DNA of 41,466 bases from Promethearchaeota archaeon (GTDB lineage: Archaea; Asgardarchaeota; Lokiarchaeia; Sigyniarchaeales; SOKP01). The notes beneath the pieces were generated by a model. The model had not been told where the DNA came from and ran no database searches. It saw only the letters and a program-made list of their open reading frames with translations. Position 1 is the first letter of the stretch. Each line of letters opens with the position of its first letter. Positions 1 through 41,092 of the stretch are shown here, one piece after another. The position numbers and the translations under genes were made by a program. The stretch is from positions 1 through 41,466 of the forward strand of contig JAHLWP010000038.1 of assembly GCA_019057865.1 (NCBI GenBank), in the 5' to 3' direction.

Positions 1-1519
1 ACTGGTTTAATCCCGAAAAAGGGAAGGCAACATGATCCTGGTTTTGTGGGTGTTGCTGTGGCAATTGGAGTCATGATAAAGCCCCCTGTCTCTGTTAACC
101 AATGTACGCGCTATGCGTCCATTTTTTGCCAGTAAGTATCGACAATGGGGCATTTCTCTTTTCCAACAACTTTGTGATACCAAGTCCAAGCCTCAGGATT
201 ATTCCCAAATACTTGAGAATTCCAAGTATTAATCGGTTCCCCGACTGTGCCTAGGACTTTTAAAGAACTTAAGTCATGTTTCTTAACTGGTTCATCACCA
301 TATCGCATTAGAGCACGTATAGCTGTAGGAGCGGTATAAATTCCCATTTGAGATTGAAATAATCTAAAATAATGAGTTACCTTATGATGTTCGACAATGT
401 CCCAAAACCTGTATCCGTCGATAGAGTAGAAAAACTCTATATCGTCTACGTCAGGATATGTTGGAACACCTTCGAACATCAAACTTGTCGCTCCATTAGC
501 TAACGGTCCGTATACTATGTAGGAATGTCCGGTAATCCAGCCTATATTTCAGCTAAACATAAGGAATTCTTATATTCATCTGCCGTACAATACCAGACAT
601 CACCTTCATGGTAATTAAATACGATTCTATGCGTAAATGACGTATATAATATATAACCTGCTGTTGTATGTTTAACACCTTTTGGTTTTCCAGTTGTTCC
701 ACTTGTATATAAAATAAATAAAGTATCCTCAGAATCCATTGCTTCAGATTCGCATTCATCGCTCATCCCTTCAATAAAATCGTGATACCAAATATCTTTA
801 TCAGTGTGGGGAACTTCTCTGCCAGATCGTTTTACTACGATAACATGCTCTATTGTTGGAACATCATCAATAATTTGAACCACATCTGCTATTTTTGAAT
901 AGAATTTCCCTGCTCTTAAGGTTTCATCGCTGGTGAATAAGAGTCGTGAGTCAGAATCATCGATTCGGCCCTTTACAGCTTCTTTTGAGAAACCACCAAA
1001 AACTATAGAATGAATAACTCCAAGGCGAGCACAAGCAAGCATTATTATTGCTAATTCAGGAACCATAGGTAACCAAATTGTTACACGATCTCCCTTTTTC
1101 AAACCAAGTTTTTTCATACCATTGGCAACTTTATTAACTTCTCTTAATAATTCTGTGTAAGTGTAGGTTTTAACATGTCCTGGCTCGTCAGCTTCCCAAA
1201 TAAGAGCCACCGTATCACCTTTTCCAGCTTTTATATGTCGATCTAAACAGTTGTAAGCAACATTTAGTTTTCCTCCGACAAACCATTTACCAGGAAACAA
1301 TTCTGTTTTTTCCCATACTTTTTCATAAGGCTCGAACCAGTCTAGAGATTTTGCTTGTTCATCCCAAAAACCTTCCATATCTTCAATTGATTGTTTGTAA
1401 AGTTTCTTATATTCTTCTAAAGACATGCCAGATTTAGCAAATTCCTTGTTTAACTTAATAGGATCAAAAATGCGTGTTTCAGTAAGAATACTTTCCATCT
1501 TTTTGTCTTCTTCAGACAT
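1..1519 (-). CDS. acs: Acetyl-CoA synthetase (AMP-forming), intron-containing; exons 580-1519, 446-547, 371-412, 232-340, 125-201, <1-94; 3' end runs off the window
   Basis: Motifs [22 protein letters not shown] and [13 protein letters not shown]. Removing five BHB introns gives one continuous frame: [60 protein letters not shown]...GEPINPEAW...DTYWQTETGG...KPGS. Confidence 0.95.
95..124 (-). other. Relaxed BHB micro-intron 5 in acs (30 nt, contains in-frame TAG)
   Basis: ggca-aa|a-aatggacgc-atagc-gcgtacatt-ggtt-aa|c-agag. Excision restores DTYWQTETGG. Boundary ambiguous by up to 2 nt (97-126 gives the same product); central helix is weak (G-U, G-U, C-G, A.G). Confidence 0.85.
202..231 (-). 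other. Relaxed BHB micro-intron 4 in acs (30 nt, in frame, no stop)
   Basis: accg-at|t-aatacttgg-aattc-tcaagtatt-tggg-aa|t-aatcct: 9-bp intron stem, central helix with an A.G mismatch. Excision restores GEPINPEAW. Boundary can slide a few nt because taat occurs at both ends. Confidence 0.85.
341..370 (-). other. BHB micro-intron 3 in acs (30 nt, in frame, no stop)
   Basis: ggtaa-ctca-tt|a-ttttagatt-atttc-aatctcaaa-tggg-aa|t-ttatacc: central helix ctca/tggg. Excision creates a TTT codon and restores KVTHFYTAPT. Confidence 0.87.
413..445 (-). other. BHB micro-intron 2 in acs (33 nt, in frame, no stop)
   Basis: cctg-acgt-ag|a-cgatatagag-tttttcta-ctctatcg-acgg-at|a-cagg: exon helix cctg/cagg, central helix with one A.G mismatch. 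Excision gives YPDVDRFW. Confidence 0.85.
548..579 (-). other. BHB micro-intron 1 in acs (32 nt, frameshifting)
   Basis: Minus strand ttgta-cggc-ag|a-tgaatataag-aattc-cttatgttta-gctg-aa|a-tatag: 4-bp central helix cggc/gctg, two 3-nt bulges, 10-bp intron stem. Excision restores GCA GAT ATA GGC TGG (A-D-I-G-W). Confidence 0.92.
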
Positions 1520-1762
1520 AACATTTCATTTCTTTGAATTTTATTATATTTGAATTATTTTATGTTATATTTTTTGTTAATACATTAAAAATTTTAAAGA
1601 TTCATGTTCAGTCTCATCGTAATTAAAATTATTATTTTAATAAGACGAGAATAAGTCAAAAAATAGATATATTAAATCATTTTTAAACATTTTATTTATA
1701 ATTTCAAAAAAAATATATAAAGCCATATAATAATATTTAAATTATTTGAATGATTATAATAT

Positions 1763-3046
1763 TTGATTATGGATGCTAAAAAGTTGAATGGGTATATTTC
1801 CAGATATTTAACCAAACTTAAATCAAGTGAAAACAACATCGAAGAATATTATCTAAAGAAATTGACTGGATTATCACTTGGGACTCAACTATATTGTTTA
1901 CTATCAATGTGTAAGTTGTTTGAAACTGATGAACAAAGAAATATGAGTGGAAGATTTAAACCAAATAATGTAATATTGGAACATGCAGATGTAAATCAGT
2001 TGACTAAAGAGAATATATTTGATTTGTTAAGATGCAAATAGTATAAATCTCTTAAACCACAGACTCAACAATTACATATTAGAAGAATAAGACAATATCT
2101 AAAACATTCTAAAAGAGATGATTTAGAAGAATTATTACCAAAAAAATTTAAAATTGACGCAAAACAACTGAGTAAAACTGACCTAATAACAAGAGATGAT
2201 TTAGAATTAATTTTTAAATTTAGTAATTTATGGGGAAGGACTTTAGTAATGGTGATGTATGAAGGGGCATTGAGACGAGATGAATTATTAAGTATTAGAA
2301 AGAAAGATATAAAATTTGAACGTGGATATGCTATATTAAAAATTGTTCAATCAAAAACTGCTAAAAGAGACATTCCATTAGTTGAAAGCATACCTTATTT
2401 GAAAGAATATTTTGATAATAACTATTTTGAGTCAAATGATTTAATATTTCCTTATAAAGAAGCACATTTTCTAAATATGTATCTTAATGACCTTAAAAAC
2501 AAAATAGCAAAGAAATATCCCGAATGGAAGAACAAAAAAATATATCCACATTTGTTTAGACATTCAAGATTGACAGAATTGGCTTTATCAAAACTTAATG
2601 AACCCCAATTGAGAAAAATAGCAGGGTGGACAGCAAATTCTGATATGCCTAAAATTTATTTTCATTTAGATGATAGTGATATAATTAGTATTATGACAAA
2701 TAATGCAGTACAAAAACCAGAACCAAAAAGCGTTAAATTAGTTATATGTCCCGTCTGTAATATTGAAAATACAGAGCAAAGTACTTTCTGTTGGAAATGT
2801 AATAATATACTCAATGAAGAAAAGAGAAAAGAAGCTGGAATACAATTAATTACGCAATCAGATGAAATAAGAGAACTAAAGAATAAATTGAATGGTATGG
2901 AGAAAATAATTTTAATGTTAGAGGGGTTGTATACTCATCAAATAATCAAAGATAAATACCCAGATATTGAAATTGATAAAGATATCAATGTAACAAATAT
3001 AATTACAAAAGAATTCAATAAAATGTTTGAAAAAGATAAGGAATAA
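1763..3046 (+). pseudogene. Tyrosine recombinase/integrase with C-terminal Zn ribbon, interrupted by one in-frame TAG at 2039-2041
   Basis: ORFs 1763-2041 and 2249-3046 share a frame that is open between them. Catalytic motifs YEGALRRDEL, SKT, HLFRHS, GW...MPKIYFH; CPVC...CWKC. Confidence 0.85.
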
Positions 3047-3091
3047 TTAATTTTTTTTGTACAATCATTTTCATTTCTTCTTTTTTGGTTC

Positions 3092-3571
3092 TTAGCTTCC
3101 TTTAGTTCTCCTTTCACAAATCAATTTATAAATACCAAAAACAAAACAAATTAAAGAGGGTATAAAAAAAATAAGAACAACAGGAACTATCAACAAATAA
3201 ATCAAAGAATACTTTAAAGCAAAAATAATTTGTGAAGTTAAGAACAGAGATGTAAAAATAAGAATTGGTAAGCTTACTGCAATAATTAAATAATATATAT
3301 ATCTCCTGTTATTACCATATAATGATTTATATTTTACTATACCATATAAACCAATAGGAATAAGAAATAAACTCACAAAAAACATCATATATATATAAAT
3401 TACTAATAATCCCAATACTAAGAATATCAATCCAATAATAAGTAATGCAATCGATAAATAGTATATTTGTTTATTTTTCTTATCGATCATTTTTATATCA
3501 TCAGAATTCATACCTTCACTCTCATCTTCCTTTTCAGAAATACTCTTCACCATGAATCTTAAATTATCCAA
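3092..3571 (-). CDS. Hypothetical membrane protein (about 4 TM)
   Basis: 159-aa ORF with four hydrophobic segments. Confidence 0.6.
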   Translation of the reverse strand: MDNLRFMVKSISEKEDESEGMNSDDIKMIDKKNKQIYYLSIALLIIGLIFLVLGLLVIYIYMMFFVSLFLIPIGLYGIVKYKSLYGNNRRYIYYLIIAVSLPILIFTSLFLTSQIIFALKYSLIYLLIVPVVLIFFIPSLICFVFGIYKLICERRTKGS

Positions 3572-3641
3572 TTTTGTAAATAATCCTATAATTATAATTT
3601 TGGATTATTTATAAATACATTTAATCATTCATATGAATTGG

Positions 3642-3671
3642 ATAATCATTTAGACATGTTTAGATGATTAT
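3642..3671. repeat. 30-bp imperfect palindrome
   Basis: ataatcattta-gacatgtt-tagatgattat; arms match at 10/11 positions. Confidence 0.7.
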
Positions 3672-3777
3672 TTTCGAGTTTTGAATCAATTTTTCAAAAA
3701 TCCCCGTACCCTTAATAGACAGATGATTGAAAAAAATGTATTTTTTTGTCCATATTATTTATCAAAAAAAAGTGAAA

Positions 3778-4137
3778 TTATACTGCTCCTAATATCTCTA
3801 TTATTGCTCTTAATGTCGTTAAATAATCTTGAGCCTGTCTTCTTGTTACACCAATTTTATTTATTGTATAATCATCTAAATCTTGAACAGACAAAGCATC
3901 TAAAAGACATAACATTCTCTGACAACCAAATTCCATATGTCTAAAATCAAACACTCTTGGCTTGGCAATCACTTTCTTTTCAAACTCAATCATATCAGAT
4001 GATATAATTTCAGCAAACTTAATTAATTTTTTGAAGCATTTTGTATTCATCTTTTTTATAGCATTGCTTCTTTTTTTATCTATTTTTTCTAACATCTTTA
4101 ACCCTCGTTTTACTTTTTCTTTCTTTGCCATAACCAA
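3778..4137 (-). CDS. Hypothetical protein, possible C-terminal HTH
   Basis: 119-aa ORF overlapping the upstream gene; INKIGVTRRQAQDYL resembles an HTH. Confidence 0.55.
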   Translation of the reverse strand: MVMAKKEKVKRGLKMLEKIDKKRSNAIKKMNTKCFKKLIKFAEIISSDMIEFEKKVIAKPRVFDFRHMEFGCQRMLCLLDALSVQDLDDYTINKIGVTRRQAQDYLTTLRAIIEILGAV

Positions 4138-4613
4138 TATTCGAAGTTGCCTGTTATTTTTCCAGCATGAATGGCGTTTTTATTGGTTTCTTTTTCGAAT
4201 TGGCACATTAGATTAGTTTTGGGCTTATTCCACACTTGTCCTTTTTTGTGTTTACTTTTTGGCTTACTCCGAGGTTGTCTTTTTTTATGTTGTGGCTTTC
4301 TTACTTTTGTTAATGGTATTTTATTCAACTCTACTTCTAATCTTTTAATCATATATTCTATATGTCTATTTATGTGAATTTGAACCCTTACTGGTAATTT
4401 ATTAAGAAATTTTGGATGATACTGGTTCATAACATTATAGACTAATTTTTGATAAATTTCTATTCTATAATATGATCTATCATAATATCCTTTAGCTGGT
4501 GGTTTAATTGGATTAATTGGTATCTTGATTTTTTCTCTTATATCAACTTTTTTATCTAAAACTCTATTTAAATGAATTATAATATCTTTAATTCCATGTA
4601 TAGCAGCCGATAT
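4110..4613 (-). CDS. Basic hypothetical protein, probably extending upstream of the called ATG (4430) to an ATA start
   Basis: Frame stays open for more than 60 protein-like codons upstream (ISAAIHGIKDIIIHLNRVLDKK...) with no ATG/GTG/TTG. Confidence 0.5.
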   Translation of the reverse strand: MSAAIHGIKDIIIHLNRVLDKKVDIREKIKIPINPIKPPAKGYYDRSYYRIEIYQKLVYNVMNQYHPKFLNKLPVRVQIHINRHIEYMIKRLEVELNKIPLTKVRKPQHKKRQPRSKPKSKHKKGQVWNKPKTNLMCQFEKETNKNAIHAGKITGNFEYWLWQRKKK

Positions 4614-4979
4614 AATAAATATAATAAATATGAAAGAATATTTGAGTTGAAATTAAGAAAAAAATTGTTTATTTAATTTTTTTATTATTAATTCTAAATC
4701 TTAGAGAAGATTAAAAGAATTATGATATATATTGAATTATTGTTGGGTATTCTATTATTATAATTTAGAGTGTAGTGTTAGAAGTTAAATAATAAGTTAT
4801 ATATCTTTCGAGTATCGGGAAATAACAGGTATTTTTGAATATGTTCTTAATTTTTTATAATATATAATTATTGATATTTATTTGAAAAGAATCGATGAAA
4901 AAATAGGTAAAAAATAGATTTTTTGAAAATTTCAAATATATTTTTCAAAATTAATTTAAATACAGATCTTAAACTTAAA

Positions 4980-5369
4980 CTAATCTTTTTTTGAAACCTT
5001 TTGGGAAATATCTGTTGGATATTCTCTTTCTTTATAATTCTCAAATCTCTTTAGTGTATCATTTATATTCTCTAATCTATATTCTAAATCATCAATTTTA
5101 TCGACAATTTTTGCAAGATTCGTATCAGGTCCTTCAATAATATTCTTAGCACTTTTTCTATTATCTGCTTTTATAGCTAACTTATGAACAGCATCATCAA
5201 ATACTTTCCGATCAATTTCATTTTTGCGAAATTTTTCAATTTTCTTAGCGAGTTTATTGATTTTCCAATTACTTAATATATACTTAATAGCAGCGACCGA
5301 CGTAATAAATAATAAAATTAAGGAAATTATTTGAACAATTAAATTAAGAACTTCAATTTCAAGTGTCAT
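4980..5369 (-). CDS. Hypothetical protein, N-terminal TM plus coiled coil
   Basis: 129-aa ORF with a hydrophobic N-terminus. Confidence 0.6.
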   Translation of the reverse strand: MTLEIEVLNLIVQIISLILLFITSVAAIKYILSNWKINKLAKKIEKFRKNEIDRKVFDDAVHKLAIKADNRKSAKNIIEGPDTNLAKIVDKIDDLEYRLENINDTLKRFENYKEREYPTDISQKVSKKD

Positions 5370-5510
5370 TTTTAAAAAGTGGATAATTTGTTTTTTAGTT
5401 AATAAATTATTGAAATGCTATTTAATAATTGTTATTAATTGAGAAATTATTCAAGTCTTTACCTTCATCAGATAAATTAAATCGTTTGTAAAAGTCTTTA
5501 AACACTAATT

Positions 5511-5655
5511 TTAATTTTCTGACTTTTCTTCAGAATCAAGAATTTCTTTAGCTTTATCTCTAAGAATTTCATTAAGAAATTCAGCTGTTGACCTATAACC
5601 CAATTCAGGATGGTTATTCAAATACTTCTTAAAAACTTCAAATATTCTACGATTA
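5511..5655 (-). pseudogene. Ribbon-helix-helix (CopG-like) gene remnant
   Basis: IFEVFKKYLNNHPELGYRSTAEFLNEILRDKAKEILDSEEKSEN* aligns by eye with the ORF at 11084-11260; no N-terminal strand or canonical start in frame. Confidence 0.55.
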
Positions 5656-5744
5656 TTTTAGAATCACAAATACATAAAAAATTAAAATTAATATATCTTA
5701 AATTATTGTAAGATAAAAAAGACAAAAAATGGAAGTGAAATTAT

Positions 5745-6512
5745 TTGGAGCTTGAAAATATTTTTAATATTGGATGCCTTTTGGGGAATTGTAAAATATG
5801 GACAATATCACCTAAACCTTTTGACTCTCCTTTTTATCAGACAATACTAATCCCTTTAAATATACTAAAAAACAAATTAGAAAATTTAGAAATCCAAGAA
5901 TATGGTAATGAGGTAATAGATATTCTTAAACAAAAAAAAGACAATGAAGAAGAACTGAGTAAAAAAGATATTGAGAAATTAAATAAACGCCTAAAACAAT
6001 TACTTAAAGAATTAATAGAAAATTTAATTAAAAGAATTCCTATTTGGGAAGACAGAATTATTAATGAGTTGATTAAAATTAAAGTAGTGAAGTTATCTAC
6101 TGATACAATTCTAAATCCAGAAAAACTTTCACTTGGAGCAGAATTATTTTTCGATATAAAAATTTGGGATAAAATGTCAAATCTTGAGAAAGATGACTTA
6201 GATGACGGTTGTCGGTGTATTTCATTACAAGCGTGGACTCCAGCTGCGATGATTACAATGAGGGTTATAGAATCGGTTTTAAGAAATTATTACCAGAAAA
6301 TTACTTCAAATGATCCAGTAGGTAAAATGTGGGGATCTATGTTAATTGAATTGAAAAATCATCAATCTGCTAATCAAAAATTAGTTGAATATTTTGATTA
6401 TCTTAAAGATATTAGAAATTCAATCCAACATCCTGATGTAAGATTTTCACAATTTGAAGCTGAAGATACTTTTCATCATGCAATTCATATTTTAAATACA
6501 TTTTATTCTTAA
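5745..6512 (+). CDS. Hypothetical protein with C-terminal HEPN/DUF4145-like domain
   Basis: AAMITMRVIESVLR helix and an Rx4H motif (RNSIQH). Confidence 0.6.
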   Translation: MELENIFNIGCLLGNCKIWTISPKPFDSPFYQTILIPLNILKNKLENLEIQEYGNEVIDILKQKKDNEEELSKKDIEKLNKRLKQLLKELIENLIKRIPIWEDRIINELIKIKVVKLSTDTILNPEKLSLGAELFFDIKIWDKMSNLEKDDLDDGCRCISLQAWTPAAMITMRVIESVLRNYYQKITSNDPVGKMWGSMLIELKNHQSANQKLVEYFDYLKDIRNSIQHPDVRFSQFEAEDTFHHAIHILNTFYS

Positions 6513-7210
6513 TTTTATATACATTTTTTTACTTTTATTTTATAATATGTTTTAATTAGCAGGGAAGAAACTAACAAAAAAATTTTTAGTCAGTATTTTT
6601 CGCAACAATAAATTATTATTATGATATATTCATTTCAACGCCAAATTCAGTTTCAAGATTTAATCTTGAAGTTGAAATTTCATCAACTATTTTTATTGAT
6701 GGGCTATCTATTTTTAAAATCTTCTGTTTAACTAATAAATTCAAACTTGAATTAATAATGGATTATCGAAACATCATTCAAAAAAAATATGTACAAATTG
6801 ATGATAGATTGAAAATTTTTGGAATGAATTATATTTATTCTTTGTTCTAAAAATTCTAAATTTTTTTGCCTTATCCACTTCAATTTCTTGATATTAATTT
6901 TTTGATAAAATCGTGTTTTTGACATTCTCACACTGTCTACTCTTTTAAATTAACATAAAATACACCATCGAGTAGACACGGTCTAATCCCTATGTAATCG
7001 ATTTTTTATTTAATATATATATTTTGGAGATCAAACTATATGAAATAAAGAATTTTAGTTTTCATATAAATCCAAATCTGTTTGTAGATTAACTGAAAAG
7101 CTACATGAACATATGGATTTATATATGATAACATTTTCTAATTATTTAATAAAATTTATTTTAAAAACCAATGATTAAAATAATCAAAATTAAAGTTGGA
7201 GGTATAGAAT

Positions 7211-7621
7211 ATGACAAAAAATGAAAAAGAAGTAAAAAAGAAAGTCCAATTGACTCTTAACGGTTTAAAAACTGGTATGGTCATTAAAGATTTGCACGGG
7301 GAAGATGTAGAAATCACAGAAAATTTAGTGGAACAGATGAAAGCATTTGAAAAAGATACTAAGAAATCAGCGATTTGGAGAAATAGAATAACAGGGAACT
7401 TCTTATTGTACAAATGGACAAAAGAAAATCCAGAAGAGAAGAAAATTAAAGAAGTTATTGAGGAAGAGTTAGAGGAAGCAATAGAGGAAGAAGTAAAAGA
7501 CGAAGAAAATATGTTATTGGATTGTATTGCTGATTATAAAGTAGAATATAATGTAAAGACGGTTAAAACAGATTCCAAAAAGTTCAAAGCCTTTTTTGAG
7601 AAATGGAAGAAAGAGAATTAA
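7211..7621 (+). CDS. Hypothetical charged protein
   Basis: 136-aa ORF, GGAGGT SD upstream, T-tract downstream. Confidence 0.7.
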   Translation: MTKNEKEVKKKVQLTLNGLKTGMVIKDLHGEDVEITENLVEQMKAFEKDTKKSAIWRNRITGNFLLYKWTKENPEEKKIKEVIEEELEEAIEEEVKDEENMLLDCIADYKVEYNVKTVKTDSKKFKAFFEKWKKEN

Positions 7622-7943
7622 TTTTTTTTCTTCAAACAAATTGTTTTATATTATTAGTTATTCTTTTTTTGCTTTTGTAGCCTTTTTTCTAAAAGTTCTA
7701 ATTCTTAAATATTTTTGTAGAAATCGTGTTTTTTTCTCTCAAATTAGAATAAAAATGAAGATTTAAATTAACTAGTTTTATTATATTAATGTCTTTATAG
7801 AGCTCTCTATAAGAATCCCTATAAGAATATATTTTAATTAAATTACAAAAACTAACAATTAAATTAATTTTTTTTATTGTAAGATGTTTGAAATTATCAA
7901 ACTCCAATTAAAATAAAAATATAAAAGAGGAAGTGATAAATAA

Positions 7944-8264
7944 ATGTATTTTAAATTACATGGAAGAAGATTCATATTATTAGGAATATGGTTATTTTTA
8001 ATGAGTTTATTAATATTTATATGGTTTATTAATTATTTTATCATAAATATTTTGTTATACTGTATAATTTTTATAGTATGTGCTGGAGTTCTTTTAATAA
8101 AAATAATAAATTCCTTTAAAATTAGTATTGATTGTATACATCTCCCTCTTTTTTTTATAATCCCTTTTATTATTATATGGTTTGTTTGGTATTTTTATGA
8201 TTTTATAATTTTTAATATAATTTTTGTTATATGTGATTTAATAATTGTAATAAAAATCTATTAA
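7944..8264 (+). CDS. Hypothetical membrane protein
   Basis: Hydrophobic 106-aa ORF with GAGGAAGTGA SD. Confidence 0.5.
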   Translation: MYFKLHGRRFILLGIWLFLMSLLIFIWFINYFIINILLYCIIFIVCAGVLLIKIINSFKISIDCIHLPLFFIIPFIIIWFVWYFYDFIIFNIIFVICDLIIVIKIY

Positions 8265-14768: not shown

Positions 14769-16679
14769 ATGAAAAATTCAGATTTTCTAGATCTTGATTG
14801 GAGAGAGAAGTGGAAAGAAAAAGAGATTACAGCAGAAGAAGCAATTAGAAAAATAATCCCAGGTAATAGAGTGTTTATAGATTCAGGGTGTGCAGAACCA
14901 AAGTTATTAACTATGGAATTAATAAAGCATTCAGAAAAGCTAATCGATACTGAAATCCTCCATTTTTTAACAATAGGTCCTGAGAAATATTTCAAGGATA
15001 AGGCAGAAGATCTCTTTCGACATAACGCACTATTTATTGGAAAAACTCTTCGTGAGGAAATAAACAAGGGTCAAGCTGATTATACACCGATTTATGCAAG
15101 TGAAATCCCATCATTATTTATAACTGGGAGAAAACATATTGATGTAGCTCTTATACAAATAACCCCTCCGGGTCCTTATGGATTTTGTTCCTTAGGAATT
15201 AATGTAGACATAGCGAAACCAATAACCCAATCATCAAATCTTACTATTGCTGAAATTAACCCTCAAATGCCAAGAACGTTAGGCAATAGTTTTATTCATA
15301 TGAAAGAAATTGATTATTTTGTTTATAATGATACTCCTTTACTCGAATTTCATTTTGACGAACCAGATGAAATTGCTAAGGGAATAGGACAGAATCTAGC
15401 AAATTTAATTGAAAACAAATCAACTATTCATATTGGTTTTGGTGATTTGCCAAATGCTGCCTTAAAATTTTTAGGTGAAAAAAAAGATTTAGGAATGCAT
15501 TCTCATTATATCACAGATAATATAATACCTCTTATTGAGGAAGGAGTTTTAACATGTAGGAAAAAGAATTATCATCCAGAAAAAATTATAACCAGTTTTG
15601 CTTTAGGAACTAAGAAATTATATAATTTTGTAAATAATAATCCCTACATCGAGTTTCATCCATCTGATTATGTTTGTAACCCTAGATTTATTGGAATGAA
15701 TAAAAAACTAGTTTCAATAAATTCTGCTCGGCAAATCGATCTAACTGGACAGGTAAATGCTTCTACAGAAGGATATCGATTTTATTCTGGACTTGGTGAA
15801 ACTATTGATTTTATGAGAGGCGCCGCTTTTTCTAAAGGGGGTAAACCGGTTATAATTATACCTTCAACATCTCGAGATGGTAAAAAATCAAGAATAGTCT
15901 CTCATTTAGATGAAGGGGCGGGGATAATGTTATCTCGAGGAGATGTGCATTATATAGTAACTGAATGGGGTGTTGCTTATCTTCATGGTAAATCAATTAG
16001 AGAAAGGATACTTGAATTGATTTGTATTGCCCATCCAAAATTCCGTCAATCACTATTAGATGAGGCCAAAAAACTAAATTATGTATATTCTGACCAGTTG
16101 CTTCCATGTGATGATAATGGGAATATTTGTCTATATCCCTCTCAGTATGTAACTATTTATGAAACACACAATAAACAGAAGATAAGAATACGCCCTGTTA
16201 AAACTACGGATGAACCATTATTAAGAGATTTGTATTACTCATTGAGTGAGAGGGATAGATATTTAAGATTTTTTGAATTAAAAAAAGAATTTACTCATTC
16301 TAAAACACAATTTGAAGTAAATATTGATTATAACAATGTTTTTTCCATTGGAGCATTTATAGGTGAAATTGGAAATGAAAAGATGATAGGAAATGCTACT
16401 TATTATTTAAATCCTAAATTAAATATGGGAGAGTATAGTTTCCTTGTGAGAGATGATTATAGAGGCAAAGGAATTGGTGGATTTCTCTATCAACAAATAA
16501 TCATTATTGCAAAAGAAAGAGGATTAAAAGGACTCTATGGAAATATACATATTCAAAATAAAAGTGCTGTTAGAATTATTCAAACAGGTGGATATACTAA
16601 AATAACTCCGCCAACTGAGATTAATGGAAAAGAGCTGTTCTATGAAGTCTTTTTTGATAAAGAAGATTCAACTAATTGA
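14769..16679 (+). CDS. Acetyl-CoA hydrolase/transferase fused to a C-terminal GNAT acetyltransferase
   Basis: ADYTPIY, GFCSLGINVD, DLTGQVNA, SGLGETIDF.RGA, YIVTEWGVA; GNAT part YYSLSERDRYLRFF and VRDDYRGKGIG. Confidence 0.9.
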   Translation: MKNSDFLDLDWREKWKEKEITAEEAIRKIIPGNRVFIDSGCAEPKLLTMELIKHSEKLIDTEILHFLTIGPEKYFKDKAEDLFRHNALFIGKTLREEINKGQADYTPIYASEIPSLFITGRKHIDVALIQITPPGPYGFCSLGINVDIAKPITQSSNLTIAEINPQMPRTLGNSFIHMKEIDYFVYNDTPLLEFHFDEPDEIAKGIGQNLANLIENKSTIHIGFGDLPNAALKFLGEKKDLGMHSHYITDNIIPLIEEGVLTCRKKNYHPEKIITSFALGTKKLYNFVNNNPYIEFHPSDYVCNPRFIGMNKKLVSINSARQIDLTGQVNASTEGYRFYSGLGETIDFMRGAAFSKGGKPVIIIPSTSRDGKKSRIVSHLDEGAGIMLSRGDVHYIVTEWGVAYLHGKSIRERILELICIAHPKFRQSLLDEAKKLNYVYSDQLLPCDDNGNICLYPSQYVTIYETHNKQKIRIRPVKTTDEPLLRDLYYSLSERDRYLRFFELKKEFTHSKTQFEVNIDYNNVFSIGAFIGEIGNEKMIGNATYYLNPKLNMGEYSFLVRDDYRGKGIGGFLYQQIIIIAKERGLKGLYGNIHIQNKSAVRIIQTGGYTKITPPTEINGKELFYEVFFDKEDSTN

Positions 16680-22110: not shown

Positions 22111-25100
22111 TTAAGATTCAGTTTCAATTAATATCAATTCTTTCTCTTCTTCAAATAATGGTAAAATCTCTAGCATCTCATTAATTTTTGGCAAAAATTT
22201 ATCCATTTTATATGATTTAACATCAATTAAAAACAAGATTAACAAGATATAAAGGGTATCTTCAACTAATTTTCTATTTATTCCTAAACTATTTAAGAAA
22301 TTATTCACGTTATCTCTAATGAGTTGTATAGATTCTCCTGCTTTTAATAAAGATAAACCATGGAGAAGTATTAATAGCGAACTAGTATTATAATCTTGTC
22401 TTTTAGAAATTGTAATAGCTAAATCAAAATATTTTTTACCAGCTTTTTTGAATTCTTTTATTTCTAATAAGCCCAAAACGTCAAAATAATATCGTTTTCT
22501 CATAGCTTTTCGTTTATTATAAAAATCACTTTTATCTCTTCGGATATCTACTGTTTTAGATTTTATTTTGGCAAATCTTTGATCTAATTCTATCAATAAT
22601 TTTGATAATTCACCATACTCCTTTCTTGATAATACTCCTTTTACTTCTTCTTCATAAATTTCTTCACCTAAAAGAGATTTCAATACTGTAATCTCAGGTT
22701 CGAATAGAACTAGTTTTTCAATAAGGAGATTTAGAGTAAACTGAAAAATTTTATTCTCCTCACTTTCAATTGCTAAGTAAAGATAGTTCATAATTTCGAC
22801 TTCAGGTAAAGTTTCTATATAAGGTCCTAGACCTTTAAGATATTTTTCAAATGTTTTTTTAGCAGTTTGAACATTTTCATTAATTAAAATTATTGAACCC
22901 AAAATTAAACTGATTGCAGCTTGCTTATAGAATTTCTTTTCAATGAGTTTAGGAAGAGTATCTAAATAAGAGATTGAAGCATTAAGATATTTTTTATTTG
23001 AAATATCTTCCAAGGCAAGTCTCCAATATTGGTTTTTCATCAATTTTCTTTTTGCAATGTCTGATTTTTCTTTTTGAATTGAATTTGCTAATTTTTTAAT
23101 TTTTCTTTTAACTTCTTCTGTTTCTGCTACTTGTTCAATAGTTTTTTCACGTTTTACCTTTTTTTGGTAATCCTTACCTAAATAATCATAAAGAAATTTC
23201 AATTCTTCTTCGAATAGTGGTAAATTCTCTATATAGGAGATTGCCTCTTTAAGTTTAGGTTTATCTTTAAGTTTCTCTAATTCTATTATGTATTCTATTA
23301 ATTTTATTGGAAAACTTTCAGAAATAAGTTTCCATAAATTAGATAGCTCTTTTTTCGTTTCATTGAATAGTGTAGTAATCTCTTGAGTTTTATTTTGTTT
23401 CATCAGTATTAGACTAGCTATAACTAAAGAAACGCCGCCTAAATTATACTTTTTATTTTTAAAATGTCTAAAAATATTATTTCTATATATTTCTACAGCT
23501 TTATCGTATTCTATATTTTTTAAAAAATTTAAAGCATCGTTAAAATATGCTCTTTTAAATGCTTTCCTTTCTTTTAATTGTTTTTCTTGGTCAAGTAATG
23601 CTTCTTGTCCTTTAGTTTTAACAATTGGTAACCTTTCTTTTAAGATTTCTGCTTCCTTTTTCTTTTCTGCTTCCTTAGATTCACGAGCACTTTTTTCTGC
23701 TTCAAGTTTAGCAATTTTTTTATGCATTTCTGTTTTAAATTCCTTACTTTCAATTCTATCATTATAGACATGGGCGTTATGTAGATCATTTAAATCTATA
23801 TAAATTTCAACGATCTTCTTATATATTTCATCTAAATTAATTTTTAATCGTTCTTCCTTATCAAGATACTTTGAAATAATATTTTCGATTTTTTTTATTA
23901 ATATTGTTGCTTGATTAATCCCAGAGAGGTTTTCTTCACTTTCCAAAACCCTCAAAGCTTCCTTTTTGATAATTTTTATAAAAAGAAGACTTATTTGTTT
24001 TGATTCATCATAAAGCAATTGATTTCTGAAAATTCTATTTGAATTCTCAAAAATACTTTCATTTCTTTTATGAGTCTCTTGTTTCTTAATTTCTTTCAAT
24101 TTTAGTATGTATACAGGATAAACTCTTGTTAAATATTTTTTTTTCATATCTTTTGTAAGATCTTCATATATTACAAAAAAATCTTCAAATATTTTTGCAT
24201 CTAATAACACATCTAAAGATTTTGTTAAGATTTGGTGGCTAATATCTTCTTTACCAATAATTTTAAGATAATTAGCTTGATTTTTAAGAATATTTGCTGC
24301 ATTTAAATGTTCATTTAGCTCAATTAAATTATTAGCTTCTTCGATTTTCTGAGAATTTATGTCCACAATAATATTTAATTCAGCTTCTACAAATTCACCA
24401 AGTAAATCTACTCCTTTTTTAAGATTTTCCTCTATTTCCTTTTTCTTTGATTCTTTATACTCATCTTCTGCTATTGAACTTAATTTTGTTACTTTTTTCT
24501 TTAACTTTAAAGAACTTAATTTACTAATTAAAATCGTAGAAATACCAAAATTATATTCTTTAAGAAATAAGGTTATCAATTTTTCCAATATTGAATCTAG
24601 ATTTTTCTTTTGTACATTATATGATTCCCACATATTTTCAATTTCATCATAAGTTTGTTTTGCGGCATAAATCTTATTTTGATTAACCTGTTCCTTTAAG
24701 ATTCTTATTAATATATCACTTAATTTTTCTGTTAATTTTTCTATTTCTTCAGATAGTCCCTCGCGTTGGTATTTATCTATTGCTCGATATAATTGTTCTC
24801 TTGCCGATTCATAATCATTTATGCTTACCAAGAAATCCCCTTCATCTCTAATTTTTTCTGAGATCTCCTTCAGAATAGTCAAGATTTCTTTATGGGGTAA
24901 ACTTTCGAGAATTCTAAACGCATTTTCAACCCTACAAGCGGAAATCCAAGAATTGATTGATAATCTAAAAGTCTCATGAATTATTTTCTCATCCCTTAAT
25001 TCAATGCTTGACCATTGTGCTGCTTTTTCGTATATTCTCGCTGCTTTTTCATATTTCCCTTTATTAAATAACCGATTACCATCAGTAATCATTGCCTCAG

Positions 25101-25845
25101 CATATAACTTTTTATAATTTATTGATTTTTTTCTGTCAACTCTTTCTAAAATTTTGCTTGCTTCTAAATATAAGTTGAGTTTTGAATAGAGATAAGCTGC
25201 TTGGTCACAAAGGATAAAATATTCTTCTTTATTGTAAATATCGGCAATAAGAGCTGCTTTTTTTACAGCTTGAGCAGCATAATAATAATTTTTGTTATCA
25301 TAGTAAATATTTGCCATTTGGATAAATATTGGAAATCTCATCCATGCATTTTCAATATTTAATGGAGAATCACCATTAATCATAGCTAAACATAGAGCTT
25401 GAAGTGCTTGATGAAAATTTCTAGGATTTAAATTTACAAACGCTTCTAAACTGGGATAATTAACCCAAATGGTTTCCAATAAGTCATTTACTGACATTGG
25501 TAAAACACCATTTTGATCATAAAAAATTATAACTGTTGGTATATCTCTCTTAACCAAAAATATATCGGGAAGAAGCATCTTGAATTTTTCAAATTCTCCT
25601 ACTTCCAAAGGATTTAAAAAGTAAACAATTCCGTCAGCAGTAGGAAGTAGCTCATCAAAATCAGCTGCAATATTTGTAATAACATCAACTTCTAAATCGC
25701 AATAATCTTCTAAAACCCTTATTTCCCTATACCATTCGTTATAAGATTCTTTTTCTTCTCCAATTTCATTAAAAGCTTCAGAAATATAAAGGTTAGATAT
25801 TTCTGGATTGCGGGAAAAGATCAAGATTTTGAAAATGTATCTCAT
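22111..25845 (-). CDS. 1244-aa alpha-solenoid (TPR/SNAP-like) protein, possible degenerate GTPase-fold N-terminus, three C-terminal repeats
   Basis: Helical TPR-like patterns (YEKAARIYEKAA); repeats ending LPLFEEE, LVLFEPE, LPLFEEE. Confidence 0.75.
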   Translation of the reverse strand: MRYIFKILIFSRNPEISNLYISEAFNEIGEEKESYNEWYREIRVLEDYCDLEVDVITNIAADFDELLPTADGIVYFLNPLEVGEFEKFKMLLPDIFLVKRDIPTVIIFYDQNGVLPMSVNDLLETIWVNYPSLEAFVNLNPRNFHQALQALCLAMINGDSPLNIENAWMRFPIFIQMANIYYDNKNYYYAAQAVKKAALIADIYNKEEYFILCDQAAYLYSKLNLYLEASKILERVDRKKSINYKKLYAEAMITDGNRLFNKGKYEKAARIYEKAAQWSSIELRDEKIIHETFRLSINSWISACRVENAFRILESLPHKEILTILKEISEKIRDEGDFLVSINDYESAREQLYRAIDKYQREGLSEEIEKLTEKLSDILIRILKEQVNQNKIYAAKQTYDEIENMWESYNVQKKNLDSILEKLITLFLKEYNFGISTILISKLSSLKLKKKVTKLSSIAEDEYKESKKKEIEENLKKGVDLLGEFVEAELNIIVDINSQKIEEANNLIELNEHLNAANILKNQANYLKIIGKEDISHQILTKSLDVLLDAKIFEDFFVIYEDLTKDMKKKYLTRVYPVYILKLKEIKKQETHKRNESIFENSNRIFRNQLLYDESKQISLLFIKIIKKEALRVLESEENLSGINQATILIKKIENIISKYLDKEERLKINLDEIYKKIVEIYIDLNDLHNAHVYNDRIESKEFKTEMHKKIAKLEAEKSARESKEAEKKKEAEILKERLPIVKTKGQEALLDQEKQLKERKAFKRAYFNDALNFLKNIEYDKAVEIYRNNIFRHFKNKKYNLGGVSLVIASLILMKQNKTQEITTLFNETKKELSNLWKLISESFPIKLIEYIIELEKLKDKPKLKEAISYIENLPLFEEELKFLYDYLGKDYQKKVKREKTIEQVAETEEVKRKIKKLANSIQKEKSDIAKRKLMKNQYWRLALEDISNKKYLNASISYLDTLPKLIEKKFYKQAAISLILGSIILINENVQTAKKTFEKYLKGLGPYIETLPEVEIMNYLYLAIESEENKIFQFTLNLLIEKLVLFEPEITVLKSLLGEEIYEEEVKGVLSRKEYGELSKLLIELDQRFAKIKSKTVDIRRDKSDFYNKRKAMRKRYYFDVLGLLEIKEFKKAGKKYFDLAITISKRQDYNTSSLLILLHGLSLLKAGESIQLIRDNVNNFLNSLGINRKLVEDTLYILLILFLIDVKSYKMDKFLPKINEMLEILPLFEEEKELILIETES

Positions 25846-34904: not shown

Positions 34905-35000
34905 ATGAGCTCGATATGGGAAGATAAAGTAAATATAGATAAGTTTGGAGAAGCTTACAGGGAATATATGAAAAGAGTGAAGCTCTGGGGAATTTTTTAA
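34905..35000 (+). pseudogene. C-terminal remnant of an ICMT/PEMT-family methyltransferase
   Basis: WEDKVNIDKFGEAYREYMKRVKLW matches the family's E..L...FG..Y..Y...V C-terminal signature. Confidence 0.55.
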
Positions 35001-35638
35001 AACATTTTATATAAAAATTTTAAAATTATTTCTTTTAATTTTTCAATATTTATCTTTTGTAAAGCTGAAAATTCTAGATATGGAATTTCTGCTTTGTTAT
35101 GGAATTCATGGTCATCTAAATGAACTAAATTTAATTTATATATCTCTGCTGATTCAATAAATAATTTAATACTTTTAGATTTATCAAGATTAGATACTTT
35201 GTCTATTTTATTAAAAATTAATAAAATGGGTATATCAAATTCTCGTAAAAATTTTATCAATTCAAAACTTAAGGGTACAGTTTCTTGATTATGAATAAAA
35301 TACTTTTCAATCTCGTCTTTAATTCTTAAAATATTAATAACTACCAAGCCGAAAAAATAATCTTGATGATGTTTCTCAATATGTATAACAATTTGCTTCT
35401 TAATATGCTCTTCTCGTCTATGACTAACCCGTCTAATATATCCAAAACCAGGAAGGTCTACTATTTTATAAGACAAATCAGTTTGGGTAATAGGTTTTAT
35501 TAATAAGGTACTTCCAGGACGCTTTCCTATCTTACCTTTAAACTTTCGTGGATTTGGAAGTAAAAGTCTTGTTATTGAACTTTTTCCTACATTAGAATTT
35601 CCAATAATTGCCAATAAGGGTTTTTCATTCATGCTCAA
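34997..35638 (-). CDS. engB: EngB/YihA-like GTP-binding protein
   Basis: GNSNVGKSS, PGST, VDLPGFG, NKID, SA. Confidence 0.82.
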   Translation of the reverse strand: MSMNEKPLLAIIGNSNVGKSSITRLLLPNPRKFKGKIGKRPGSTLLIKPITQTDLSYKIVDLPGFGYIRRVSHRREEHIKKQIVIHIEKHHQDYFFGLVVINILRIKDEIEKYFIHNQETVPLSFELIKFLREFDIPILLIFNKIDKVSNLDKSKSIKLFIESAEIYKLNLVHLDDHEFHNKAEIPYLEFSALQKINIEKLKEIILKFLYKMF

Positions 35639-35661
35639 ATAATTATTTACATAAAATCCTA

Positions 35662-36540: not shown

Positions 36541-36768
36541 AATATCTTCTATTTAGTTAGTAGGCATTTTATTCAATTTTTTCTATATTAATATTAGTTC
36601 TTTAATTCTTTAAATATTAATATTCGTATAATTAAAATTAGAAAACGTTAACTTTATTATGAAAAAAAAGAAAATCTTGGAGAAAATATTAAAGTCTATA
36701 AGAAAAAACTTAAAAATCGTAAAATTAAAAAATCTTCCTAACTACTTAATATATGGTGAAAATTTAAA

Positions 36769-37476
36769 TTGATTTCTTATTCTGGTTTGCTTGATGGATT
36801 ATCAGCAACAGGTGTTATTATATCTTCCTGTGTTTTTGGATCACTATTTTTTTACAAATCATTAAAATTAAAGGCAAAGTTACTTACTATTGCAGGTATA
36901 ATGACATTTTTTGCAGGTCTTTTTTATTTAGGTCCATTTTCTGACTTTATGTCTATTTTATTGACTGGAGATAATTTGGAAAACCCTGTAACAATTGGTA
37001 TATATGGAAGATTAAGCTATATGTGGGTTGCTCCAAGTCTTATATGCGCTATGTATATTGGGGCGGAACTCATTAAACCCGATAAAAAATGGTTTATTGT
37101 ATCAATCTATATTATTTTGGGGATAATTTTTGAGTTATTTCTATTTTTTAATACGATGCATTCTTTTACTTTTATATTGAAAAATCCTGGAGAAGACCTA
37201 ATTGATGCTAGTTTTGTTTTTGGACATCCCACATTCCTACTTATTGCTATTTTTTTACTTTCCATTCTAATCTTTAATGGATTTGGGTTTTTGTATAAGA
37301 GTTTTCAATCAACAGGAATGTTAAAACGCAAATTTTTATTTTTATCATTAGGATTCTTAACTTTTGTAATAGGTGGAACAGGTGATTCATTAATTAGTCC
37401 AGGGGTAACTTTGGTTTTTGTAAGATTCTTAATGGTTATTAGCTCATGGGTTTTGTATTTAGGCTTTAAGAAATAA
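36769..37476 (+). CDS. Multi-pass (about 7 TM) membrane protein
   Basis: Seven hydrophobic segments; GGTGA SD before TTG. Confidence 0.75.
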   Translation: MISYSGLLDGLSATGVIISSCVFGSLFFYKSLKLKAKLLTIAGIMTFFAGLFYLGPFSDFMSILLTGDNLENPVTIGIYGRLSYMWVAPSLICAMYIGAELIKPDKKWFIVSIYIILGIIFELFLFFNTMHSFTFILKNPGEDLIDASFVFGHPTFLLIAIFLLSILIFNGFGFLYKSFQSTGMLKRKFLFLSLGFLTFVIGGTGDSLISPGVTLVFVRFLMVISSWVLYLGFKK

Positions 37477-37621
37477 AGAGTTGTAAGGAATTAATAAAAA
37501 AAGTAAAGATCTTAAGTAAATCTCTTTTAAATCATCTTACTTTCTTATTTTAATATATTTTAAATCGTGTAATTTAAAGTTAATAACTTTATATAAAAAA
37601 AAATAAAAATTTAAAGCTTAT

Positions 37622-38038
37622 TTAACTATTTCTTTCTCGTGTTTTTGACTTATCAATAAATAAGTTTATGTATTCATCTTCAAATTTTATATGTTAATAT
37701 TTAATATTTAATAATTCACCCTTTCTTAATGCCCCCTCATATAAAACCATTAATAATGTTCGCATTTTTGAATTACAATGCTTTAAAATTTGCTTTAATT
37801 CAATTCTATTAATTAATTCGTTTTTATTCAATTCCTTAATGGCACTGTTATATTGTTCTGGATGACATAATTTTGCTAGCTCATTTTTACCTGAAAAATC
37901 AAAAGATTTTTGTAAATGTATTAATTGTAGTTTTTGCGAATCTCCTGCTAAGCTATTAAACCAGCTACTTTGTAGAATTTTAAAAAAATCTTTTTTAACG
38001 TTTTCAAATTTTAGTATAATTAAAATTACTCTAAACAT
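37622..38038 (-). pseudogene. Tyrosine integrase remnant related to 1763-3046
   Basis: RTLLMVLYEGALRKGELLNIKY*HIKFEDEYINLFIDKSKTRERN; internal TAA and no HxxR/Y region. Confidence 0.8.
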
Positions 38039-38052
38039 TAATTCACTTTAAG

Positions 38053-38760
38053 ATGGATAAATTAAATTTAGAACACTATAAAGGAATCATCTTTGACCTA
38101 GATGGAGTCATTTACGATATTACAGATGCAATCACTAAAGCTGTCGATGATGGAATAGAAAAATATCAATTAAAGGTTAACCGTGATGCTGTCATGGAAG
38201 AAATTGCCCATTTAATCGAAGAAATCCAAAATTATCCCGTCCCTAAAATACTATTAAATTCTTACGAGTTACTTAAAATAAACTCTTTGGAAGGACTCAG
38301 TTTCTTCAAAAAATTACGTATAGCTATTTTTTTATTTAACCAGTTTAATAAATATAGAGAAGAAGCAACCATATTTAATGGTATAGATGATTTAATTTCA
38401 AAATTATCAAAAAGTTTAAAATTAGCCATATTAACCAATAATAAAAGTCAATATGCTGAAGAAGTATTAGAGAAATTTAATTTAACTAGATATTTTGGAA
38501 CTATAATTGGATTTAACGAAGTATCAGAAGTTAAACCTAGTCCTGAAGGAATTCTCAAGATTCTTGAAAAATGGAAGATTAAATCCTCAGAAGCTATTTT
38601 CATAGGGGATATGACAACTGATATTGAAGCAGGTAAAAATGCTAATGTTAAAATGATATGTGTTGCTAGTGGGCTAGCTCAAAAAGAAAATTTAAAGGAG
38701 CATAATCCAGATTACCTTATTGATAATACAGCTGAACTAAAACAGCTTTTTAATTTATAA
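38053..38760 (+). CDS. HAD-family phosphatase (phosphoglycolate phosphatase-like)
   Basis: FDLDGV, LTN, KPSP, IGDMTTD. Confidence 0.9.
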   Translation: MDKLNLEHYKGIIFDLDGVIYDITDAITKAVDDGIEKYQLKVNRDAVMEEIAHLIEEIQNYPVPKILLNSYELLKINSLEGLSFFKKLRIAIFLFNQFNKYREEATIFNGIDDLISKLSKSLKLAILTNNKSQYAEEVLEKFNLTRYFGTIIGFNEVSEVKPSPEGILKILEKWKIKSSEAIFIGDMTTDIEAGKNANVKMICVASGLAQKENLKEHNPDYLIDNTAELKQLFNL

Positions 38761-38809
38761 TTTTTAAAAAAAATCTTTAAAATAGTAGGAGTAGAATTTT
38801 TAAAAAATT

Positions 38810-41092
38810 TTAAGTTCTTTTATAGATAAATCTCTCCCAGCTTTTAGTACTTGGCATCTCTAATGGCATATTTTTCCTTTTTCGAATTTCTAAAATAAGA
38901 TCTTCTTCCAAAGAAGGTGGTACTTTCTCAAATCCCTTAAATTCATAACCAAAGAAAGCTCGCCCCTGCGTTGAACTTCGAATTTCATCCGCTATCCCTA
39001 TAATTTCGGCAGCTGGAATTTGTCCTTGAATTCTTACATATTCCCTTTCAGGGATGACATTGTTTATTCGACCTCGATGGCGATTAATTATTGAATTTAC
39101 CCCCGCTTCAGTTCCTTGAGGAGTTTTTACATCTATTCGCTGGATTGGCTCATAAAGATGAGGATCGGCGTTTAACATTGCGAGAGAGAAAGCAGAATAA
39201 CTCATACTGGCAGTCTGTGCATATTGCGTATGTCTAGGGTCTTCGTGTATGACAGCGTCTGTGAACACAGCTTTAATGCCCATAGCTGGTTCTTTAGCTA
39301 TGATACATTCACTAAGCCAATTTCTAAAAGCACTCACAAGATCATTTTTTATTCTATCAAATCTTTGTAATCCAGAAGTTCCATTTACTAGAACATTTCC
39401 TTTAAAAACATCAATAATACGTCTAGCTTCTTTTGTATCCCAACCTGCTTCTTCCCTTAAAATCTGGGCACGTTCTTTTTCATTCTGTAAATCAGTAATT
39501 TTACCCTCATCAATTAATTCTTCAGTTTTTTCATCTAATGGTTCTATGTATAACAAAAGTCGATTATGAGCATTTGATGATTTGGTATGAAATTGTTTAC
39601 TTTTTGCATTAATTTTTTCTCGGTATACTATGATGGGTTCTCCTATATCAATTTTTACTTGATTGTTTATTCTTTTTGTCAAAATTTCAATTTGTAAGGG
39701 ATCGATTCCGCTAAGAATGTATTCCATTGATTCTTTATCAAGACGAAATTCTGCTGTTGGATCTGCTTGTATCCACTTCCCAACAACCTCCCCTAATTTA
39801 CCAAGGTCATGTGGATCTTGGGGTTTAATACTTCTTGATACAACAGCTTTACAAGCATAATGGATTTTTTCAAAAGTAGGGATTTTGCCAATTTCTTCTT
39901 TATCTTTTGGGATCATTTCATTATGTATAAAAGTCTCTCCAGAAGGACAAATGAATCCATATAAAGCAAAGAGATTTCCCGCTGGTATCTTAGGAATGTC
40001 CAAAAGATCTGTTATTTCCATAACACCTAATCTTTTTACCCGATTTGAAGTTCGACTTCCAAGTAGATAAATTGAGTCAGTTTGATTAAAAGTTCCAGAG
40101 AAAACGCGTCCAATCAAAGTTGCTGCATATTGACGTCTTGGGTCCAAAAATATTTTTGTAATCATCCCATATAATGGTCCGCTAGAATCACATTTTTGCA
40201 ATGATTGCCCCAGTTCTGAGTTCAAATCTCCTCCCCAGAGATGGGGAATTCTATATTTAGATGCACTAACAGGATCAGGTAGATGATCAACAACCATTCT
40301 TAACATCGGCTCATCTAATGGTAGATTCTCTCTTAACCATTCTATGTCTCCCTCGTTGTATTTAACAAAAACATCCTGAGGTTTAAGGTTTTTTTCTAGT
40401 AAGATCTCATATGTAAAACCCCACCCATGTTTGGCTGAACCACAGGCTACAGAATTCTTCGCAAAATCAACTCCCCAATTTGAACCTTCAGGTCTCACTT
40501 TCTTAATTAACTCATTGACTTCATTTGTAATTTTATCAATTCTTTCGAAAGTGTCCTTTGGACTAAGTCTTAGTTCACTAATTAATCTATCAACTTTATT
40601 TATAAAAAGGACTGGTTTACAGTATTCTTCGCCTACTGCGAGTCTAATATTAGTTTCGGTTTGCGTCATAACACCCTCAAGGGCATCAACTAGAATTATA
40701 GCACCATCTGAACCTCTGAGAGCTCTTGAAACTTCTCCTGTAAAAGAAATATGCCCTGGTGTATCATTCAATTGAAAAATGTAGGGTTCATTATCGTCCG
40801 GCTTTCTAAGGTCTTGAAATGCAAGTAAAACTACACTTGTGAAGATGGTAATCCCTCTTTCCTGCTCCTCGTCTTTCAGTAAACTAAGTATATCTTAATT
40901 TAAATCTGAATCGGTCATTTGGAGCTGGCCAGCATCCTCTTCCCTCATAAGTCCAGCTCGGCGCAGGAGATAATCTGTAGCTGTGGTTTTACCATGATCT
41001 ATGTGCGCTGTTATTGAGAAAATTCTTTTTTTCTGATATGAGCCAGAAGTGACTAACCTGGCGATCTCCTCAGGATTCTTTACCTTTACTAT
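38810..41092 (-). CDS. Elongation factor 2 family GTPase (likely the divergent paralog aEF-2p), intron-containing; exons 40904-41092 and 38810-40873, 750 aa, probable ATA start
   Basis: AHIDHGKTT, EQERGITI, DTPGH, NKVD, GRVFSG, YRE, STQGRA. Non-canonical SGIDPLQ (normally GMGELH) and HEDPRHTQ (normally HxDxxHRG). No rps12/rps7 next to it. Confidence 0.92.
40874..40903 (-). other. BHB micro-intron in the EF-2 family gene (30 nt, contains in-frame TAA)
   Basis: tcag-at|t-taaattaag-atata-cttagttta-ctga-aa|g-acg: perfect 4-bp central helix tcag/ctga and 9-bp stem. Excision gives TDSDDEEQERGITI with canonical spacing. Confidence 0.92.

Follow-up and report, generated by a model that had tools for sequence, protein, structure and literature searches.

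Short bulge-helix-bulge introns in the acs and EF-2 genes of a Promethearchaeota archaeon and the question of a mobile family

Do short introns in unrelated protein-coding genes resemble each other because one was copied into another, or because they are built to a common plan? The question is raised by an AT-rich stretch of DNA (the window; 41,466 nucleotides, ~26% GC), which is contig JAHLWP010000038.1 of the Promethearchaeota archaeon assembly GCA_019057865.1. In it, the gene for acetyl-CoA synthetase (acs) holds five inserts of 30-33 nt, and a gene of the EF-2 family holds a sixth. The six inserts are real bulge-helix-bulge (BHB, tRNA-type) micro-introns in two messenger RNAs (mRNAs), whose splicing is predicted from the sequence. 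Intron content changes quickly between species, and this turnover is real. The original prediction held that the first acs intron (acs1) and the EF-2 intron are homologous members of a mobile micro-intron family that spread between genes. On balance, the probable explanation is a common blueprint together with chance, with the differences in intron content carried by homologous exchange of gene segments.

Six inserts in two conserved genes

The acs gene (window 1..1519, minus strand) comprises exons 1-6, encodes the Pfam domains ACAS_N and AMP-binding, and runs off the start of the window. Its first intron (579..548, minus strand, as are all those that follow) is 32 nt long and shifts the reading frame. 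Its sequence is A-TGAATATAAG-AATTC-CTTATGTTTA-GCTG-AA, with a layout of 1+10+5+10+4+2, and its stem, read from the loop outward, consists of the pairs GC, AT, AT, TA, AT, TG, AT, AT, GT and TA. Intron 2 (445..413; 33 nt) is in frame and stop-free, with an irregular stem that contains a 2-nt bulge. Intron 3 (370..341; 30 nt) has the layout 1+9+5+9+4+2, intron 4 (231..202; 30 nt) has a perfect 9-bp stem, and intron 5 (124..95; 30 nt) has an in-frame TAG and the loop ATAGC. The acs orthologues of 15 other genomes of the genus are single open frames of 661-671 aa without any of the five introns. Removal of acs1 joins ...WYCTAD to IGWITGHSY, which is the sequence of these 15 congeners. The joints formed by removing introns 2 to 5 (PDVD-RFW, KVTH-FYTAP, GEPIN-PEAW and TYWQ-TETGG, respectively, with the hyphen at the joint) are likewise those of the congeners.

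The EF-2 family gene lies on the same strand. Exon 1 (40904..41098) contains the P-loop AHIDHGKTT, and 65 codons of open frame precede the intron, while exon 2 (38810..40873) encodes the Pfam domains GTP_EFTU, EFG_III, EFG_IV and EFG_C. The intron (40903..40874) has 30 nt, an in-frame TAA, the layout 1+9+5+9+4+2 and the sequence T-TAAATTAAG-ATATA-CTTAGTTTA-CTGA-AA. Its stem, from the loop outward, is GC, AT, AT, TA, TG, AT, AT, AT and TA. Removal of this intron gives QMTDSD-DEEQERGITI, which is the sequence of intron-less congeners. All six splice junctions predicted from the bulge register therefore correspond to uninterrupted orthologue sequence.

Near its 3' end, each insert carries a 4-nt strand complementary to four exon bases that lie two bases before the 5' cut. 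The original prediction that these strands match their own exons in acs1 and EF-2 was borne out. The central helix is paired at 4/4 positions in acs1 (CGGC/GCTG, with one wobble), EF-2 (TCAG/CTGA) and acs3 (CTCA/TGGG), and at 3/4 positions in acs2, acs4 and acs5. Minimum free energy folds of acs1 and the EF-2 intron show the BHB motif, and the fold z-scores of the six inserts range from -1.3 to -3.0 (acs1, -2.33; acs2, -1.26; acs5, -2.52; EF-2, -3.00).

The window is contig C82 of the host genome (G000; 4.26 Mb in 87 contigs), whose sister species (G012) was compared over 2.37 of ~3.5 Mb, with 1.78 Mb aligned to G000. The acs exons 2-6 of the two species have 79.5% nucleotide identity and 91.5% amino-acid identity, and of their 87 differences, 68 affect the third base of a codon when the gene is read in its spliced frame. 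That frame stays intact only when the 32-nt acs1 is taken out. The acs inserts recur, ungapped, in contigs of three independent metagenome studies of sediment, and the intron-less acs joint was not seen in those contigs. As a side observation on contigs from runs X3, X6 and X9, none of 40 variant positions listed for window 1-1600 falls in the 155 nt of acs introns, where ~4 would be expected. Fifty further variant positions lie beyond those listed, and the finding is only a hint that the acs intron sequences are conserved.

The host genome encodes two proteins with the EndA domain (PF01974; contigs C71 and C69) and one RtcB (PF01139; contig C75). Asgard archaea are reported to possess a broad-specificity (alpha-beta)2 EndA (PMC5829648), and the presence of two EndA-domain proteins together with RtcB fits this enzyme. 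In the proposed scheme, the last six exon bases of the transcript (the 4-nt helix strand plus two bulge bases) would pair through the helix strand with the 4-nt strand near the intron 3' end. This would produce two 3-nt bulges flanking a 4-bp helix. The two-subunit splicing endonuclease would cut in both bulges, after the second base of each, and RtcB would ligate the exons.

A further insert was observed in the EF-2 gene of the congener G018 (contig L038, minus strand). It interrupts the P-loop (ITAH-30 nt-IDHGKTT) ~130 nt upstream of the common intron site, contains two stops and ends in AA. No insert of this type was present in the other congeners whose EF-2 P-loop region was read.

Common blueprint and probable chance resemblance

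The details that had suggested a family were confirmed as observations. The alignment of acs1 with the EF-2 intron, as first noted, has 24 of 33 columns identical (73%). Relative to acs1, the EF-2 stem lacks one whole A-T pair and has A-U in place of one G.U, and both have the same U.G wobble. Introns acs3 and acs4 both end in TGGGAA, and similar loops recur (AATTC in acs1, ATTTC in acs3 and AATTC in acs4). A terminal AA and a 5-nt loop characterize five of the six, the exception being acs2 with AT and a 6-nt loop. All are simple hairpins of 30-33 nt without an open reading frame (ORF) of their own.

For an unbiased comparison set, introns were collected as G000/G012 indels of 28-34 nt that fit the BHB register within continuous ORFs. 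In the 1.78 Mb aligned, ~19 introns were found only in G000 and 6 only in G012. The test set consisted of 26 curated mRNA introns, which form 325 pairs. Introns of tRNA genes were kept out, as ARAGORN returned only 30 tRNAs with mostly implausible introns. A scan with a BHB-hairpin descriptor followed by an ORF-joining test was discarded as unspecific (508 matches, compared with 477 at random positions) because gene boundaries mimic joins.

The per-pair P of acs1 and EF-2 is 0.007 with shuffles that keep the hairpin pairs and composition, and 0.002 with column permutation. As the best of the set, the same pair has P = 0.065 by alignment score and 0.063 by identity with structure-preserving shuffles, and P = 0.093 when base-pair and loop columns are permuted among ten canonical introns. 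None of the 325 pairs reaches 80% identity. The comparison with matched shuffled hairpins, chosen beforehand as the test that could overturn the original prediction, thus placed the similarity neither clearly above chance nor clearly at it, and judged on sequence the likeness appears borderline. The claim of homology between acs1 and the EF-2 intron was not supported at 73% identity and a family-wise P of 0.06-0.09. Among Asgard tRNA introns, chance matches are reported to be common at 70% identity (10.64898/2026.10.13.758758).

Searches for copies elsewhere did not support spread between unrelated genes by copying, since no near-identical copies were found at other loci. The best non-self BLAST matches of 25 introns against G000 and the 2.37 Mb of G012 were no better than those of shuffled sequences. 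The acs1 hairpin, searched with up to 3 mismatches in 54 genus genomes, gave one match, which equals the reversed-control count. That match, on contig C88 of G018, is neither a hairpin nor within an ORF. Two matches to acs1 stems in JGI metagenomes lie in unrelated contexts, and their number is within a rough chance estimate. Local duplication of the exon flank, whether direct or inverted, was also rejected as an origin, as introns score equally against their own and other flanks in both orientations.

A 30-nt sequence resembling the EF-2 intron (22/30) was observed in more than 15 genus genomes (e.g., L205:4371-4400, minus strand; contigs L203-L217), ~30 kb from EF-2 in several congeners. It was found with a degenerate EF-2 pattern and sits, in the manner of a C/D-box sRNA, in non-ORF DNA with an ATGATG box on one side and a CTGA box on the other. 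The number of independent matches to the pattern equals that of the reversed control, and the resemblance was treated as chance.

The introns do have features in common beyond the BHB motif. Among 12 introns that differ between G000 and G012, 11 have 5-base loops of the form A...C, and 8 fit A[AT][AT]TC. Of 531 genomic decoys with the same hairpin architecture, 5.3% and 1.3%, respectively, have these forms (P ~1e-13). The four loop-proximal pairs TAAG/CTTA are common to acs1, the EF-2 intron, leuS C49:6130 and G012 L153:4382. The blueprint is ~30 nt long. Its 9-10 bp stem is AU-rich and has a U-A foot, its five-base loop begins with A and in most cases ends in C, and its bulges are A-rich. The loop and stem-top features reveal a shared blueprint, possibly with a sub-class, but cannot tell constraint from descent.

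The leuS region of G000 (C49:5260-6160) was observed to hold four inserts relative to G012, with a flank identity of only ~67%, and the leuS copies in the two genomes may not be simple orthologues. The insert at C49:6130 is the hairpin TTTTGTAAG-AATTC-CTTACAAAG, with approximate borders.

The resemblance between acs1 and the EF-2 intron most likely reflects the blueprint, low-complexity composition and chance. Recent copying of one intron into another gene is probably not its source. EF-2 introns change slowly between species and are identical in three genomes (G000, G001 and G041), so a recent copy should be far more similar than 73%. Of the proposed mobile micro-intron family, the greater likeness than among random AT-rich hairpins and the difference in content between relatives are supported, and the homology and the copying are not.

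Turnover, divergent tracts and competing explanations

The EF-2 intron illustrates the turnover. An intron occupies the same EF-2 site in 15 of 54 genus genomes, and its stem contains a compensatory pair between genomes (A-T vs G-C). On an exon tree of 19 congeners, the genomes with the intron are dispersed, and each has a sister that lacks it, a pattern that corresponds to at least 7 gains or losses. G000 and G001, which carry the identical intron, are far apart on this tree. Intron-plus alleles have the common 3' exon bases GA[CT]GAGGAGCA, able to pair with GCTCC upstream, whereas intron-minus alleles mostly have GATGAAGAACA at these bases.

In acs, exon 1 (nt 1-940) of G000 and G012 is 95.9% identical, compared with the 79.5% of exons 2-6. 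Identity switches ~100 nt upstream of intron 1, the low-identity part spans all five introns, and G000 and G012 are no longer sisters in the 3' part of the gene. Because of this switch and the lost sister relation, the sequences suggest a single recombination event behind the difference in all five acs introns, as opposed to five recent insertions. The notion that they were gained after the split at 96% identity was dropped, given the recombination breakpoint upstream of intron 1. Across 23 polymorphic introns, the median identity within 100 nt is 83-85%, compared with a genome-wide median of 94.3% (Mann-Whitney P = 1.5e-9), and it recovers to ~93-95% beyond 300-900 nt.

These findings point to recombination as the vehicle of the intron differences. 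In the favored explanation, intron-bearing or intron-free gene segments would be swapped between species by homologous recombination, and precise intron loss would occur alongside this exchange, while the likeness of the introns would come from the common blueprint and chance.

Several observations weigh against this explanation or the intron assignment on which it builds. The only RNA run with matching reads (X20) covers window 804-1027 and 1242-1291, both within exon 1, and reaches no junction. The pair of acs1 and EF-2 ranks first of the 325, and pairs with a score of at least 5 are in modest excess (10 observed vs 3.6 expected, P = 0.007). In addition, acs1 is nearer to the EF-2 intron variant of this genome than to other variants. 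The four introns that share TAAG/CTTA give P = 3.5e-4 by column permutation in a post hoc test. Common origin, as opposed to constraint, could account for the loop motif, and loop sequence in the old EF-2 intron differs freely from species to species. With regard to the tracts, other indels of 24-39 nt also lie in less conserved DNA (median flank identity 87.5%), and low identity near introns could mean that divergent tracts had longer to gather intron changes. The 23 loci are also not independent, with five in acs and two in leuS.

The strongest competitor is a true mobile family, in which acs1, the EF-2 intron, leuS C49:6130 and G012 L153:4382 descend from one intron that relocated from gene to gene. 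One such route would be reverse splicing into an mRNA with a pairing 4-nt site, followed by reverse transcription and recombination. The first rank of the acs1/EF-2 pair, its per-pair P of 0.002-0.007 and the stem top common to the four introns are what such descent would leave. So is the agreement of the acs1 and EF-2 3' stems at 9/9 positions for type A and 6/9 for type B. Transposition of tRNA introns in Thermoproteales offers a precedent (Fujishima 2010, as cited in PMC4090602 and in 10.64898/2026.10.13.758758). A derived copy should nevertheless be near-identical, given the invariance of the EF-2 intron across three genomes. The pair is only 73% identical, 3 of 5 loop bases differ and the 3' helix strand is shifted. 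The family-wise P is not below 0.06, and copies of at least 80% identity were found neither in the 26-intron set nor in the genome with G012, the 54 genus genomes or the JGI metagenomes. In Asgard tRNA introns, 1.5% belong to families of 80% identity vs 0.6% for shuffles, compared with 28% in Thermoproteales (10.64898/2026.10.13.758758).

A reverse transcriptase would be one component of such a route, and the genome contains one RVT_1-domain ORF. The expected co-occurrence was not found, as the enzyme is sporadic in the genus and shows no pattern; it is present in G000, G012, G001 and G018, and absent from two of five congeners checked (G016 and G003). The only RVT_1 match in G000 lies at C11:10261-10734 (plus strand; 43.9 bits) in a 1033-aa ORF, on a contig with 25% GC. 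Descent of the four introns from one mobile ancestor is considered unlikely. It is similarly doubtful that the subset with the apex TAAG-AWWTM-CTTA is an ORF-less mobile family that seeds unrelated protein genes, finds its targets by 4-nt pairing and then spreads between species by recombination. If true, intron proliferation would have a prokaryotic counterpart in the lineage nearest to eukaryotes.

A different origin of the common features is that a single process at the DNA level makes introns as hairpins with an A-W-W-T-C apex, which older introns lose by drift. The features would then come from the manner of making and not from descent or selection, with the EF-2 intron as an older example. 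The presence of the loop motif in 11 of the 12 introns found in only one of the two species agrees with this idea, as do the varied loops of the EF-2 intron, which has a wide distribution in the genus (ATATA, ACATA, ATTTA, ATCTA, GCTTA and others). With the closing G, three loops form GAATTC and one forms GATATC. Against it, the introns are unlike their own flanks in either orientation, and BLAST of 25 introns against the genome and G012 found no donor sequence. The divergent tracts mean that introns differing between species may be old, and no candidate enzyme was identified. This origin is considered less probable again than a mobile family.

Finally, that the inserts are hairpin DNA elements of the REP/MITE kind or assembly errors, which break or lengthen the genes, is scarcely credible: three acs inserts are in frame and stop-free and so translatable in principle, but the same inserts recur in three independent studies, a frame-shifting and two stop-bearing inserts sit within exons that change mostly at third positions, all match the BHB register to the base, each sequence is unique without repeated copies in genome and genus searches, the junctions inspected show no consistent target duplication, the EF-2 stem has a compensatory change, and all inserts lie inside conserved coding sequence, unlike the mostly intergenic REP/MITE-like elements.

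Other features of the window were noted in passing. An ORF of the phage-integrase family (tyrosine recombinase) lies just upstream of acs (2249-3046, plus strand). GC falls to 23-25% at ~2000-8000 around it, below the rest of the window, and this stretch may be an integrated element. A 636-aa ORF (14769-16679, plus strand) has N- and C-terminal acetyl-CoA hydrolase/transferase domains followed by a C-terminal GNAT acetyltransferase domain, and a 1244-aa ORF lies at 22111-25845 (minus strand).

Comparison with known intron systems

In the searchable literature, cbf5 is the only protein-coding gene for which BHB introns are documented. The cbf5 pre-mRNA intron of Crenarchaeota is a short BHB intron that is removed by the tRNA-splicing enzymes and has been gained or lost among relatives (PMC2738675). 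The introns described here are similar to it in their protein-coding hosts, short BHB form and gain or loss among relatives. They differ in that five occur in acs and one in EF-2, that they are ~30 nt long, that they belong to an Asgard archaeon with hosts unrelated to RNA modification, and that their splicing is predicted. In the window, a single mRNA has five BHB introns, and a translation factor has a sixth. In addition, in-frame 30-nt 'insertions' in Asgard proteins may be unrecognized introns.

The intron families of Thermoproteales tRNA genes are likewise BHB introns without ORFs (Fujishima et al. 2010, cited in PMC4090602 and 10.64898/2026.10.13.758758). Many occupy non-canonical sites, and their proposed movement between genes is limited by the need to form a BHB. 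In Thermoproteales, 28% of introns fall into families of at least 80% identity across tRNA types (10.64898/2026.10.13.758758), in contrast to 0 of 325 pairs and mRNA hosts here. For Asgard tRNA introns, frequent lineage-specific gain at BHB-competent sites is reported, with neither copying families nor an association with mobile elements or reverse transcriptase, and their arrival route was left open (10.64898/2026.10.13.758758). That preprint concerns the same lineage and intron type but only tRNA genes, whereas protein-coding genes are concerned here. The loop signature and the link of intron differences to divergent DNA tracts go beyond it. Three leads follow from the present analysis, namely the strong common loop signature, the small group with the same stem top, and the location of sister-species intron differences in divergent DNA.

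Homing group I and II introns provide the last comparison. As with these, the introns are patchy at one site, identical copies occur in distant lineages, and the flank differs between intron-plus and intron-minus alleles. Unlike them, the 30-nt intron has no ribozyme, homing endonuclease or reverse-transcriptase ORF, and the flank pattern can also be obtained from ordinary homologous recombination or from exon pairing constraints. What looks like a burst of intron gain can be one recombination event. If the differences do stem from recombination, introns of this type would move between lineages without any intron-encoded machinery.

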